Assembly (NCBI GenBank): GCA_044343545.1
Contig: JAWBZR010000007.1
Span: 1 to 28,140 of the forward strand
Source: Candidatus Aenigmatarchaeota archaeon
Lineage (GTDB): Archaea; Aenigmatarchaeota; Aenigmatarchaeia; CG10238-14
Direction: 5' to 3'
Length of the DNA stretch: 28,140 bases
Made by a program: the position numbers and the translations under genes. The notes under the pieces are model-generated. The model saw only the letters and a program-made list of their open reading frames with translations, was not told the DNA's origin and did no database searches. This document shows, one piece after another, positions 13,382 through 17,736 of this stretch. Position 1 is the first letter of the stretch. The number at the start of each line of letters is the position of its first letter.

Positions 13382-13799
13382 TAGTGTTCAAGCTGTAATA
13401 TTCAATGAAGATATGAAATTTTTGCTAATAAAAAGGAGAGGATATCATGATAGTAACTTTTTTTGGCGTTTGGTAAAGGGTAGAAAAAGGTCGGGAGAAA
13501 CGGATGAGGATGCTTTAAAGAGGGAAATAGAAGAAGAAACAGGTTTAGAGAAATTCAATATTTTAAAAAAAATTTACAGTTATTCTTTCATATCTCCTGA
13601 AGGAGACAAGGTCAAGGTTAATACATATTTAGTTTTTGCCAAAAAAGATCAAAGGTTGCAAAAAAAAGACGAAGAAGAGGATATCGTGGAGTACAAGTGG
13701 GCTAGTTTTGATGAAGCGAAAGAATTACTTCATTATGTCGAGGAAATCGAAGCTGTTCAAAGAGCAAAAGAAAATTTAAATCATCCCCCATTCTTTTAA
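13374..13799 (+). CDS. NUDIX hydrolase
   Basis: Nudix box KGRKRSGETDEDALKREIEEETGL. Confidence 0.9.
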   Translation: MVDSVQAVIFNEDMKFLLIKRRGYHDSNFFWRLVKGRKRSGETDEDALKREIEEETGLEKFNILKKIYSYSFISPEGDKVKVNTYLVFAKKDQRLQKKDEEEDIVEYKWASFDEAKELLHYVEEIEAVQRAKENLNHPPFF

Positions 13800-15542
13800 T
13801 AGTTGTTTTTCATCATCTTGGAGTTTGTCTAGAATTTCCACGAGGATTTTCAAGTTATGAGGTGTGATTACGCTTACGAGTATATCACCTTCAAATATTT
13901 GCCTACCAACTGTGGGTTCGTCCATAGAGATGGCAGCCTTTTCACCAGTTTTTATTTGATTTATGTTTTTCCCTTCTTTTTGAATTTGTTTAACTTTGCC
14001 AACATCTTTTTTGTTTTCTAGAGCTAATGGAGTGTTGACTTTTAAAACCCCAGCTAAAACTTCCACTCCAAATATGGCAGGTTGCCTCTTTCTAAAAACA
14101 AAACCAGGCAATATTCTTATCTTTGCAGGTCTGATAACACTTTCCAGTTTTTCCAGTTTTTCTCTTTCTTTTTTATCTTCTCTCCATTTTTTAAAATCTT
14201 CAACTATCTTGTAAATAATGTTGCTTTTGAAAACTGGTATCTTCTTTTCTCTTGCCATAATTTCAGCTTCTTCAAGCAAATCTACGTTAAAACATAAAAT
14301 AGCTTTCTTGTCTTCATCTTTCACAACGTCGAGTTCTACGATATCTTGTTTCGTCACATGACCTATTTCTGCCTTTTTTACCGGTATTTGATTGTCTGTC
14401 AATATCTTAACCAACGCTTCCAAGCTTCCAAGCGTGTCTGCTTTTGCTATGACACCTTCTATATCTTTCGAAAATTCTATTTTTTCAGTTTCTTCCTCTA
14501 CTATTTTCTTTGCCATTTCTATTTCATCTTCACTTTTCACGCAAACTATCGGACTCCCGGCTATCACGTTTTCCAAGTTTGGTGCGGCTATTTTGATACC
14601 GGCAGCAGCAACTACTTCATTTACAGATTCAAATTTCTTTTCCATTCTTAACTCTCTCAATTCTGGTGGTTTCAGCAAAGCTTTTATTTTTGTCACAACC
14701 ACGCCATCCTTTCCACCTACTATTAAAATGTCTCCTACCCTAACCACGCCGTCATATATTATAGCATCAATAGTCGTCCCAAGACCTTTAACTTCTTTTA
14801 CTTCCAGCACACTACCTCTCGCTTTTTCGCTCATTATTAGATTTTGAGTAAGAAATTTTTGAGCAAGACCTGCTAACATGACAAGTAATTCTGAAATTCC
14901 TTCACCCGTTTTTCCTGAGCAAGGAACAATTGCAACTTGCTTTTTAAAATCTATAATTCTATCAAACCTTTCGGCTTCAAACCCTCTTTCATAAAGTTGA
15001 GCAACAAGTGAATACAGCTTGGATTCCAATTCGTCTTGAACTTCTTTTGATTGGAAAGAAAAACTATCATGAAAACATGTTGTTCTTTTGTTTTGCCATC
15101 CGAAAATTAAATCTATTTTTGTTGCTGCTACAAGGAACGGAGTTTTGTATTGCTTTAGAAAATTTAGTGATTCGTCTGTTTGAGGTTGGAAACCTTCGTT
15201 TATGTCGATCACTAAGATAGCTAAATCAGCTATTGATCCACCTCTTTTTCTCAACGTTACAAATGCTTCATGTCCTGGAGTGTCGATGAATAGCAAACCA
15301 GGAATTGTAATGTCTATTTTCAATCTTTCTAACAAGTTTCCGCATAACTTTTTTATTACGCTAGTAGGGACGAAGCTTGCACCTATGTGCTGCGTTATTT
15401 GTCCGGGTTCAGCAGCATTGATAGCAGTACCTCTTATAGCATCTAACAATGACGTTTTCCCATGGTCTACATTTTCGGTTAGCCGCGATTAAGCGAGCTA
15501 ATGTCCGAGGACCGATACGATGGGTTGCCTTATGCGAGTGAT
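13776..15542 (-). CDS. infB: Translation initiation factor aIF5B (IF-2), interrupted by a 30-nt putative intron (exons 15542-15503 and 15472-13776; about 578 aa spliced)
   Basis: The tracked ORF has GQITQHIGA, DTPGHEAF and TKID G-domain motifs but no G1. Upstream sequence encodes RIRQPIVSVLGH, and VDHGKTSLLD follows a 30-nt insert. Start codon uncertain (ATC 15542, GTG 15563 or TTG 15566). Confidence 0.92.
15473..15502 (-). other. Putative archaeal mRNA intron with bulge-helix-bulge/BHL splice motif
   Basis: Intron sequence AUUAGCUCGCUUAAUCGCGGCUAACCGAAA, with in-frame UAG and UAA. 4-bp helix UCGG/CCGA followed by ACA and AAA bulges. Removal gives GGA CAU GUA GAC CAU GGG AAA ACG (GHVDHGKT). 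Confidence 0.85.
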
Positions 15543-15600
15543 ACAATCACCTCTTTTTAACACCAATAGATTTATCTTTTAAAGTTTTAATTTATATTTA

Positions 15601-16047
15601 ATGTCTTTGACCATTCACGATATAAAACCAATAGGTTTATGCATAGCGACGCAAGAATTATTTGATACAAAAAAATTTATTTTAAATTATTGTGACAATC
15701 TACTTCTTCGAGGCAAGGAACCTTCATTAGCAAGCAAAATAAATACAATCAAGAGAGATTTGAATAGTATAAGGACGCAACCAAAGTTTTTAGATGGTTA
15801 CAAGGCTATATTGATAAGCAACATCGATAGAATAATCGCTCTCGTCGAATCTAGATATGGTAAAACATTTTCGGATGAGGTAGATCTTGTGAAGAAAAGC
15901 GGAAAAAATATTATAGAAAAAATCATCAATGCTCAGTCGTTCGACGAAATTTCACTACTCGAAGATGTTTTTAAGACGAACATCGTCCATCCAACATATA
16001 GGCTTTTCGTCGAAGATATGAAGAAACTAAAAATAAACATTATTTAG
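15601..16047 (+). CDS. Hypothetical helical protein
   Basis: 148-aa ATG ORF filling the gap between infB and the topoisomerase gene; no motif recognised. Confidence 0.75.
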   Translation: MSLTIHDIKPIGLCIATQELFDTKKFILNYCDNLLLRGKEPSLASKINTIKRDLNSIRTQPKFLDGYKAILISNIDRIIALVESRYGKTFSDEVDLVKKSGKNIIEKIINAQSFDEISLLEDVFKTNIVHPTYRLFVEDMKKLKINII

Positions 16048-16050
16048 TTT

Positions 16051-17736
16051 TCAACATTCTTCAACCCAGGAAAACTTTTTTTGCAACGTTTTCGGGTAAT
16101 ACTTTTTCCAGTCAAAACCTATTTTTTTGAACCATTTATAATAAACTCTTGGATCAATGTAACTTTTCAGTGAAGTATTTAAATTATAATCTCTCGTCTT
16201 TTCCATAATTTCAACCTTTAATTTCATGTTCTTAATTTTTTTCTCCATTTTCTCCATTTTCTCGGCCAATCTTTTTTTCATCTTTTTTTCAATCTCCCTC
16301 ATTTGTTTTTCAATCTTTTTCATCCTTTCTTCTAGCTTGACATCTTTTCCACCTTTTTTCTCTATTCTCAATCTTAATTCTTCCATCTTTTTTTGCATTT
16401 TCTCCATTCTTTGTTTCATTTGTTTTTCAATCTTTTCTTTTGCTTCATTTTTTTGTCTTTCCAACTTTTCAATACTTTCAAACTTCTTTTTCAGCGAATT
16501 TTCCCAATTCTTGGGCAAACTCCTTTTGTGATTACAAGTAATAGCTGCTTCAAGATTCGCCAGAGTGGCAACAAATTTTTTGTATTCTTCCTCATCGGTT
16601 TCTTTGACTTTTGCCTTTTTCAGATATTCGTCTATCGTTTTTGTTGCATGATATGTCCTAAAAACTTTTGCCGTAATACCTGGAACAATGCTGCTTAAAA
16701 ATTCATTTACATTTTCAGATCTAATACCACCAAATATTCTACCATTCTTTCCTGGTTTTGATATGAACTCTTTCAAGTTATTGACAACTTCTTTTGGCAA
16801 TTTTACTTCTTTATGCCAATGAACCGAATCTTTTCCGAGAAAATCGAAAACGACTACATTATTTTCTTTTATTTTAACATTTTCTACTGTTAATGTCGTT
16901 GCACCTACCGTGTTCGCTTCGTCCTTATCCTTTTCGTCGCCAACCCTCATCTTGATCGCGTCTATAAGATAGCAAACCGTCGCAATTTTTCTCGTTTTAA
17001 CATCTTCTGAAGTCAAGTTATTCACTATATGTTTCATGAGTTTGTCATAATTGTTTCCCAATTCTATTGCTTTGTCATATTTTTCCTTTTCCCGGTTTTG
17101 CTTTACAAAACAGGAATCAGCAAGCCAAACATATTTTTCTTTCCCAGTTAGTTTATCATCCCATTTTGCTATCCACATACAGTTTGGCATCCAAACGATT
17201 TCTTTCCAATTTCCTTTTGGCCTAGGCGCATCCGGTGACAAGTTCAATATTATATCCTCTTCTTTAGGACCTTCTTTCCATCTACCTCTCAGTGGGTGAT
17301 CCCCTCTTCCCATGAATATGCTGCTCGGCTCCGCTATATAATTAGCTATCTCTACTTTCATGCCGTCAACAATAGCATATCCGTATTTTTCCTTGTTTTC
17401 TTCCCTTATTTTTTTTCTTTGCTCTGCCAAGGCTTTTTTTTCTTCTTTGCTCATTCTTTCTTTGCTCATTCTTTCCTCGTTCAAATAATTAATTATTTCA
17501 GAAAAATCAAAATCATCTTTCGTTCCTTCAACTCCGAGAGCTTTACAAAAATCTGAAAAGAAATTTTTTACGAAAACAGGGTCTTCTACATATTTGGTTC
17601 CAAGTTTTTTTACCCACGCCACTGCCATTTCTTCTTGTTGAGGAGTTAGTGAAATGAGTTTGTTTTTAAATTTTATTTTAAATCCTTTAGGCTCGTATTT
17701 TGTCACAAGTATACCATTGTGTATCAACTGATACAT
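16051..17736 (-). CDS. DNA topoisomerase IB, eukaryote-like
   Basis: LIHNG N-terminus, FMGRGDHPLRG, MRVGDEKD, FDFLGKDS, AKVFRTYHA, CNH, a coiled-coil linker, and TSLKSYIDPR with the catalytic Tyr. Confidence 0.95.
   Translation of the reverse strand: MYQLIHNGILVTKYEPKGFKIKFKNKLISLTPQQEEMAVAWVKKLGTKYVEDPVFVKNFFSDFCKALGVEGTKDDFDFSEIINYLNEERMSKERMSKEEKKALAEQRKKIREENKEKYGYAIVDGMKVEIANYIAEPSSIFMGRGDHPLRGRWKEGPKEEDIILNLSPDAPRPKGNWKEIVWMPNCMWIAKWDDKLTGKEKYVWLADSCFVKQNREKEKYDKAIELGNNYDKLMKHIVNNLTSEDVKTRKIATVCYLIDAIKMRVGDEKDKDEANTVGATTLTVENVKIKENNVVVFDFLGKDSVHWHKEVKLPKEVVNNLKEFISKPGKNGRIFGGIRSENVNEFLSSIVPGITAKVFRTYHATKTIDEYLKKAKVKETDEEEYKKFVATLANLEAAITCNHKRSLPKNWENSLKKKFESIEKLERQKNEAKEKIEKQMKQRMEKMQKKMEELRLRIEKKGGKDVKLEERMKKIEKQMREIEKKMKKRLAEKMEKMEKKIKNMKLKVEIMEKTRDYNLNTSLKSYIDPRVYYKWFKKIGFDWKKYYPKTLQKKFSWVEEC

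Follow-up and report, generated by a model that had tools for sequence, protein, structure and literature searches.

Introns of the kind removed by tRNA-splicing enzymes have been in print within archaeal coding sequence since 2002 for a single gene, cbf5 of the Crenarchaeota, in whose pre-mRNA a bulge-helix-bulge (BHB) intron was reportedly described by Watanabe in 2002 and by Yoshinari in 2006. A later study portrays the crenarchaeal cbf5 introns as short, mostly of relaxed motif, gained as well as lost, tied to the broad-specificity heterotetrameric form of the endonuclease EndA, and cleaved between bulge residues 2 and 3 (Yokobori 2009, PMC2738675). Another mRNA substrate, a BHB intron in the 5' untranslated region (UTR) of Haloferax volcanii HVO_1309, was validated both in vivo and in vitro, and that report counts cbf5 as the only other mRNA case as of 2020 (PMC7714728). 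For tRNA introns, PMC5829648 defines the relaxed HBh'/BHL motifs, gives the name 'L3' to an insert shared by the EndAs of Nanoarchaea and ARMAN-2, places alpha4 EndAs with L3 in several DPANN lineages alongside heavily disrupted tRNA genes, and argues that such loop inserts determine the cleavage of relaxed motifs. Here we analyze a 28,140-nt stretch of DNA, hereafter the window, from Candidatus Aenigmatarchaeota archaeon (contig JAWBZR010000007.1 of assembly GCA_044343545.1), on whose minus strand the gene for the translation initiation factor aIF5B is interrupted by 30 nt (15502-15473). These very probably constitute an archaeal endonuclease-type intron, of the relaxed HBh' form within the BHB family, in the pre-mRNA of a single-copy gene. 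The kind of intron is known from cbf5; the host genes and the lineage are new.

The locus shares several traits with the cbf5 introns: a short intron ('from 16' nt in cbf5) within coding sequence, an unconventional or relaxed BHB motif, a cut between bulge residues 2 and 3, a patchy distribution among relatives with both gain and loss, and a size too small for a homing enzyme. In contrast, the hosts in the present case are the initiation GTPases aIF5B and aIF2-gamma, with the interruption inside P-loop codons; the lineage is DPANN, namely Aenigmatarchaeota and a few records of other labels; the EndA is a single alpha-type protein with an L3-like insert rather than the crenarchaeal heterotetramer; and one intron type occurs in two paralogous genes. 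Further, cbf5 splicing was shown with cDNA, whereas the aIF5B intron is known here from DNA alone. The HVO_1309 intron is likewise cut out of an mRNA by the tRNA splicing endonuclease, but it lies in a UTR, whereas the intron predicted here interrupts the codons of an essential gene. With the non-canonical HBh'/BHL tRNA introns of PMC5829648, the locus shares the motif class, in which an inner stem and a helix of 4 bp flank a single canonical bulge, together with a DPANN alpha4 EndA bearing an L3-like loop; it differs in that the substrate would be an mRNA without a tRNA body, on which EndA activity is predicted. Lastly, in eukaryotic HAC1/XBP1 splicing, too, proteins alone cut a small intron out of a coding mRNA and ligate the ends, with RtcB as the ligase of XBP1 splicing, but it employs the nuclease IRE1 (mentioned in PMC13149111) with stem-loop recognition, and there a regulatory role has been demonstrated. 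In the literature searched, including passages of PMC13149111, PMC8784108 and PMC11291895, we found such introns described neither for aIF5B or aIF2-gamma nor for protein genes of DPANN archaea in general. The present locus and its relatives thus add two essential translation-initiation GTPases as hosts, with covariation support across dozens of genomes.

The interruption separates GH from VDHGKT in the G1 motif GHVDHGKT. Read on the minus strand, the RNA runs CUC GGA CAU ahead of the insert, UAG CUC GCU UAA UCG CGG CUA ACC GAA AAU within it and GUA GAC CAU GGG AAA ACG behind it, so that in-frame stops fall at 15500-15498 (TAG) and 15491-15489 (TAA). With stops written as X, the translation across the insert is MVLKRGDCITRIRQPIVSVLGH-X-LA-X-SRLTEN-VDHGKTSLLDAIRG; the first-pass annotation of this DNA, made by a model from the sequence alone, had claimed a split of exactly 30 nt with in-frame UAG and UAA, and sequence and read-through translation agree with it. 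Three equivalent 30-nt deletions (15502-15473, 15501-15472 and 15500-15471) lead to one and the same product, the last of them being ruled out by relatives that carry G instead of U after ACA. The peptide across the exon junction of the spliced product would read QPIVSVLGHVDHGK. The same annotation had expected an intact protein of about 578 aa: the intact frame stands, but the length depends on an uncertain start codon and would be 586 aa with TTG 15566 and 585 aa with GTG 15563. As it had also anticipated, the open reading frame (ORF) that a gene caller would give is a truncated one of 557 aa, which starts at TTG 15449, 3' of the P-loop. Exon 2 alone matches NF003078 ('translation initiation factor IF-2') with 761 bits against a cut-off of 468, over profile positions 20-585. 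Read-through translation widens this match to positions 7-585 (+15 bits) and that to TIGR00491 to positions 1-578 (+12 bits), both gains being obtained despite the 10-residue insertion. As the matches grow into exon 1 on read-through, exon 1 really codes for the N-terminus of the family, which in relatives has the form M-x-IRQPIV.

The minimum free energy (MFE) fold of 15530-15455 pairs UCGG with CCGA as the central helix and leaves ACA as a 3-nt bulge, beyond which lies an inner hairpin whose 5-bp and 3-bp segments are set apart by a bulged U and capped by a loop of 6 nt. These are the elements that had been proposed from the sequence, and the coordinates given for the two helix strands, ACA and AAA were all correct (Table 1). 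On the 3' side, AAA and then four more unpaired bases face a single C, giving a 7x1 internal loop, which accords with the earlier description of this site as a relaxed, BHL-like loop. Two features of the strict hBHBh' arrangement are present, namely the 4-bp central helix and the 3-nt 5' bulge between central and inner helix; the relaxed HBh'/BHL definition (PMC5829648) fits the structure of the locus, with one canonical bulge, a 4-bp helix, an inner helix and a second site in a loop. We assign the motif to the relaxed HBh' type because the outer helix is not conserved. The host assembly (G000; 651 kb in 22 contigs, of which the window is C20, 90.45% complete, 33% GC) has, over both strands, only three occurrences of the generic motif, defined as a 4-nt stretch followed by ACA, an inner stem with 5 bp or more, the complement of the first 4 nt and AAA, with at least 2 G/C in the helix; the aIF5B site is among them.

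The strongest features of the case come from relatives. A protein search with exon 2 as query in 60 relatives gave 30 aIF5B loci, 12 of which have an insert in the same codon, the remaining 18 reading GH(V/I)DHGKT unbroken. The 12 comprise all five genomes of the window's genus and members of four other genera of its family, with insert lengths of 30, 29, 30, 29, 30, 27, 27, 27, 29, 30, 18 and 24 nt; three of these shift the frame, which means that the insert cannot be translated. In all 12, a cut after nucleotide 2 of ACA and after the second A behind CC(G/A)A leaves CAY (His) followed by a V/I codon. In one of them (G016) UUGG...CCAA replaces UCGG...CCGA, and the spliced reading is GHIDHGKT. 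We then ran a boundary pattern, which fixed ACA, AAA and parts of the exons and left the two 5' bases of the exon strand (H1) free, over 370 genomes of the phylum. It found 26 sites, spread over 25 genomes of which 11 belong to the 98 of high quality, and the reversed pattern, used as a control, found none. The inserts at these sites are 18-33 nt long, and 12 of the 26 lengths are not multiples of 3. A translated 10-residue insertion is ruled out by the stops and the frameshifts, reassignment of a stop codon by the occurrence of both TAG and TAA in the insert together with those 12 frame-shifting lengths, and an intein by the two in-frame stops and, again, the lengths.

At all 26 sites the central helix pairs, as UCGG/CCGA in 22 and as UUGG/CCAA in four (from four different families), and an inner stem of 3-11 bp follows the ACA bulge. 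In the alignment of the 26 sequences, 100% of the central-helix cells are paired, one pair having changed on both sides (position 2, C-G in 22 and U-A in 4); the five closing pairs of the inner stem are paired in 96.1% of cells, and four of the five have changed on both sides (for example, G-C 15 / A-U 11, and A-U 10 / G-C 9 / C-G 3). None of 500 shuffles reached the covariation score of the whole structure, and sliding the partner columns by 1 to 3 lowers pairing from 86.6% to 19-45%. The comparison of infB among relatives that the first-pass annotation had put forward as a check accordingly shows both presence and absence of the insert, in 12 and 18 of the 30 loci, and covariation of the central helix and inner stem. 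The same pattern, run over one genome per species in 185,579 species, returned 30 stretches. Of these, 27 lie in aIF5B or aIF2-gamma, and the central helix pairs in every one; the other three, in records labelled Parcubacteria, Natrialbaceae and Gammaproteobacteria, are in no P-loop GTPase and fail the pairing test in each case, so that these chance hits are a useful internal control. At each of the 27 genuine hits, the cutting rule restores CAY, the V/I codon and the reading frame, an outcome partly fixed by the pattern. By their unchecked labels, the genuine hits are mostly Aenigmatarchaeota, with single records of Micrarchaeota, Iainarchaeum, Hadarchaeota and Nanoarchaeota.

This set of sites also bears on programmed ribosomal bypass of the T4 gene 60 type, by which the ribosome would leave before UAG and land before GUA GAC with no cut in the RNA. 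The T4 bypass features a stop after the take-off codon, a hairpin in the gap, and matching take-off and landing codons. The locus does resemble gene 60 in that a stop comes immediately behind the last codon before the gap, the gap contains a hairpin and its length varies. Yet there is no matching take-off/landing pair, with CAU or CAG before the gap, AAU before GUA, and no GGA landing codon. At five of the 26 sites, CAG is the in-frame codon ahead of the gap and UGA comes next, so that a hop would give Gln or lose the invariant His, whereas a cut-and-join at the bulge positions gives CAY at 26/26. Moreover, bypass needs no covariation between the exon and the 3' end of the insert, four bp from a 3-nt bulge; the perfect covariation seen here is the endonuclease signature. 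We therefore hold bypass to be very improbable.

Both EndA and RtcB are encoded in the genome. There is one EndA, an alpha-type protein of 177 aa (contig C1, L032:1273-1806; PF01974, 98.9 bits), which aligns end-to-end with the M. jannaschii alpha4 enzyme (1a79; E 1e-35), the one departure being a lysine-rich insert of 6 residues immediately ahead of the catalytic His. Against the N. equitans alpha subunit (3iey_A) it aligns without gaps, and against the ARMAN-2 EndA (4fz2_A) almost without. RtcB is intact (PF01139, 538 bits, no stops). ARAGORN reports only 31 tRNA genes, 11 of them with an intron, from which it follows that the splicing machinery is in heavy use; the low count and the odd positions given for several introns suggest that ARAGORN missed further tRNA genes of multi-intron or non-canonical form. 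A single-subunit DPANN EndA that must handle a relaxed mRNA motif without a tRNA body would make this locus a test case for the substrate range of the 'L3 loop'.

In the mechanism we envisage, UCGG of the exon would pair with CCGA of the intron in the transcript, and the intron hairpin would stack on this helix, leaving ACA as a 3-nt bulge. EndA, whose lysine-rich insert resembles the one in the N. equitans alpha subunit, would cleave the C15503/A15502 bond and, within the AAA behind CCGA, the A15473/A15472 bond that corresponds to it by symmetry. RtcB would then join GGAC to AUGUA, so that GHVDHGKT regains its His codon and the frame stays open for about 585 codons. Unspliced RNA would give only a 22-residue peptide (from TTG 15566, ending after the His codon) or the P-loop-less protein. 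Cuts after the second nucleotide of ACA and of AAA, removing 15502-15473, are what the first-pass annotation had predicted, and they restore the His codon and the frame here as well as in the relatives. The insert might instead be removed from the RNA by an unknown nuclease and ligase pair other than EndA/RtcB, or by self-processing of the RNA, as could be read from a 3' site that has no canonical bulge and from a sole EndA that is a single alpha-type subunit. We consider this quite improbable, as the kept geometry is exactly helix(4)-bulge(3)-helix and the genome, with its many tRNA introns, encodes both RtcB and an EndA with a Nanoarchaeum-like insert; in addition, the inserts measure just 18-33 nt, and a search of 15300-15700 against Rfam gave no family with an E of 1 or below. 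That size and the zero Rfam matches rule out a group I/II self-splicing intron or a known ribozyme.

With respect to the integrity of the gene, the whole-assembly search found one aIF5B locus in G000, the next best match being a different GTPase. The insert is spanned, with 0 differences and 0 gaps, by Logan contigs of run X2 (1066 nt, covering 15348-15800) and run X3 (379 nt, covering 15308-15686), which are separate runs on further hot-spring samples of the same study as the probable source; run X5 had no contig on the stretch, which is uninformative. Two of the grounds on which the first-pass annotation could have failed are an assembly artefact and a second intact infB beside a decaying copy; an identical insert in contigs of two other samples speaks against the former, and a single locus whose exon 2 scores 761 bits against the latter. 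Among the relatives, the exon-2 frames of the 12 interrupted loci from the protein search are intact at 562-564 aa, exon 1 is conserved in 21 of 21 interrupted aIF5B genes, and 20 of the 21 are open to the end of the available sequence (502-503 aa in the pattern-found loci), the frame of the remaining one (G130) being open for 242 aa. A dead or mis-assembled gene, or one expressed as the P-loop-less protein from TTG 15449 with the insert unprocessed, would be in keeping with the 557-aa ORF that callers output and with a genome that is 90% complete. It is nonetheless extremely improbable in the face of the two further samples, the exon 1 and exon-2 frames kept in interrupted relatives, and the fit of the exon-1 peptide to the family N-terminus; besides, a GTPase without G1 would be inactive, and aIF5B is single-copy. 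Separately, a diverged 511-nt contig, more abundant and present in X2, X3 and X6, matches both flanks of window positions 15393-15500 but is 30 letters shorter between them (78 against 108 in the window). We take this as a hint of a co-occurring relative, whose aIF5B probably lacks the intron.

Several points weigh against the endonuclease-type intron. The fold alone is modest evidence, at -22.6 kcal/mol against -16.3 ± 2.9 in shuffles (z = -2.2), with 7 of 200 shuffles as stable. In the strict hBHBh' form an outer helix between the exons closes a 3' bulge of 3 nt, an arrangement absent from both the G000 fold and the 26-site alignment. The outer pairings GGUC/GACC and CCCAU/AUGGG that the first-pass annotation had claimed do exist in G000, but they are neither conserved nor backed by covariation: the GGUC/GACC columns, as the candidate outer helix, are paired in 61.5% of cells, and one of four pairs has changed on both sides (in 2 of 26 cells), not consistently. 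Since the pattern itself fixed ACA, AAA and some exon letters, the fact that these never vary among the 26 sites is no evidence. Homotetrameric alpha4 EndAs are classically strict for the motif. That the G000 EndA insert is L3, and that it would confer cleavage of relaxed motifs, we infer from the alignment and from the correlation reported in PMC5829648. The assembly being 90% complete, unassembled DNA might still carry a second aIF5B copy. Finally, a search for sequencing runs found the locus in none made from RNA, and cleavage, ligation and their efficiency are all inferred. Set beside these points, the BHB-type intron interpretation draws its support from same-site recurrence, covariation, frame restoration, the presence of EndA and RtcB, and a single undecayed gene.

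The endonuclease-type intron is not confined to one gene. Five of the 26 pattern sites, in five genomes, lie in aIF2-gamma, in the same His codon and with the same boundaries (L079:1501-1547 of G016, on contig C11, and L054, L056, L060 and L076). Their contexts read PEVNIG(T/M/L)(L/V/F)G before and VDHGK(S/T)T after the interrupted codon, and the G016 copy scores 595 bits against NF003077. G016 has introns in both aIF5B and aIF2-gamma, and its aIF2-gamma intron is closer to the aIF5B intron of G150, a member of another family, than to its own aIF5B intron. Similarly, within genus g10 an intron of the GUGA...CAC type occurs in aIF5B of G013 and G020 and in aIF2-gamma of G022, whose aIF5B has none. 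On the aIF5B tree of 38 sequences, the intron must have been gained or lost 8 times or more, and well-supported branches force 5 of these changes; the intron frequency in this sample is inflated, as 8 of the 38 rows had been picked for carrying it. The intron-bearing G016 and G150 are sister to intron-less genomes, with branch lengths of 0.04-0.09.

A second intron site in aIF5B is found three codons downstream, inside the Lys codon (after GHVDHG and before the remainder of KT), in other families of the order and class. In three measured loci, L034 (G032), L035 (G053) and L051 (G036), the inserts are hairpins of 18-32 nt with stops, and second-site inserts are also found in G046, G048, G183, G202, G285 and G326 (L083-L085, L089, L098, L102); the central helix at this site uses exon (A/C)(U/C)GG. 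The pattern for it was too loose, with 32 genomes against about 16 control hits, most matches being uninterrupted GTPases. A third kind of insert in the aIF5B P-loop ends in VHN followed by TTLLD, in L038 (G024) and L053 (G060), which have open frames of 872 and 724 aa. By their motif these two are probably inteins. G052, with an open frame of 739 aa, probably has an intein-like insert of the same kind, and NCBIfam NF011418 (1049 positions) represents the long, intein-bearing form of aIF5B ('IF2'). The intein-like inserts of G024 and G060 share the hot spot with the mini-introns, but inteins leave the protein, whereas a stop-bearing or frame-shifting mini-intron must leave the RNA. As the same P-loop hosts mini-introns, second-site introns and intein-like inserts, its coding sequence is a hot spot for several kinds of insert.

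On the strength of the shared codon and boundaries in both genes, the patterns in G016/G150 and in g10, the gains and losses on the tree, the second site and the inteins, we tentatively raise the possibility, at somewhat less than even confidence, that the insert is one member of a mobile endonuclease-type mini-intron family. Its members would target the DNA or RNA of the GHVDHGK P-loop of translational GTPases, moving between aIF5B and aIF2-gamma and between DPANN lineages, as an RNA-level counterpart of the P-loop inteins. The distribution suggests that such introns spread between paralogous targets, and movement of this sort is plausible though unproven. The intron's patchy presence among close relatives argues that it is tolerated and not required. 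This lowers the likelihood of a required regulatory role, such as the coupling of initiation to EndA/ligase activity that the first-pass annotation had suggested; the aIF5B intron is accordingly better seen as a tolerated element, possibly a mobile one, than as a regulator. A bolder proposal, and a less likely one, is that two initiation factors relying on EndA/RtcB might leave translation initiation gated by splicing capacity.

Within G000 itself, blastn-short found no further copies of the aIF5B intron, and rtcB, aEF-2 and cbf5 (profile positions 36-287, no stops) are uninterrupted. A genome search and local tblastn did not find aIF2-gamma in this 90%-complete assembly, the hits being only an EF-1-alpha-like gene on C11 and aIF5B; the gene probably lies on unassembled DNA. 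The genome-wide scan for other mRNA introns, which the first-pass annotation had suggested, combined the motif with ORF fusion and went from 6101 raw candidates to 791 with a dominant-ORF filter and to 53 with stricter helix rules. It recovered the aIF5B site and no further convincing one: the candidates other than aIF5B are, by eye, AT-rich pairings at the boundaries of neighbouring genes, and the scan, poorly discriminating without homology, misses relaxed motifs, introns above 120 nt and stop-free in-frame inserts. The statement that G000 has no other such intron is accordingly a weak one. There is also a consequence for annotation: the P-loop-less aIF5B still passes the NCBIfam equivalog cut-off (761 vs 468 bits), so that metagenome-assembled genome annotations and alignments would silently go without the aIF5B N-terminus.

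Table 1. Features of the interrupted aIF5B gene in the window (positions of the whole stretch)
Feature	Coordinates	Strand	Remarks
aIF5B exon 1	15503..15566	-	21 codons from TTG 15566 (20 from GTG 15563) plus C 15503 of the His codon; true start uncertain
H1, exon strand of the 4-bp central helix, UCGG	15505..15508	-	pairs with 15478-15475 in the MFE fold; paired at 26/26 sites
5' bulge, ACA	15502..15504	-	3-nt bulge in the MFE fold; predicted 5' splice site 15503/15502
Putative intron, 30 nt	15473..15502	-	in-frame TAG and TAA; same-site inserts in relatives
Inner hairpin h'	15479..15501	-	UUAGC/GCUAA, bulged U, CGC/GCG, 6-nt loop; MFE fold
H2, intron strand of the central helix, CCGA	15475..15478	-	MFE fold and alignment
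3' 'bulge', AAA	15472..15474	-	predicted 3' splice site 15473/15472; in a 7x1 internal loop, not a closed bulge
aIF5B exon 2	13776..15472	-	AU of the His codon, 564 codons (VDHGKT...), stop; NF003078 match

As to the start of exon 1, the aIF5B genes of the window's genus have no in-frame ATG before IRQPIV. The candidate starts are TTG 15566, GTG 15563 or a non-standard codon after the Shine-Dalgarno-like motif GAGGTGAT (15553-15546), and position 1 of TIGR00491 corresponds to residue 11 of the TTG-started product. Adjacent to aIF5B, on the same strand, a 561-aa ORF (16051-17736) encodes a eukaryote-type DNA topoisomerase IB with a Lys/Glu-rich linker; it has no NCBIfam model and matches PF02919, PF01028 and PF14370 with E-values from 1e-66 to 6e-17.

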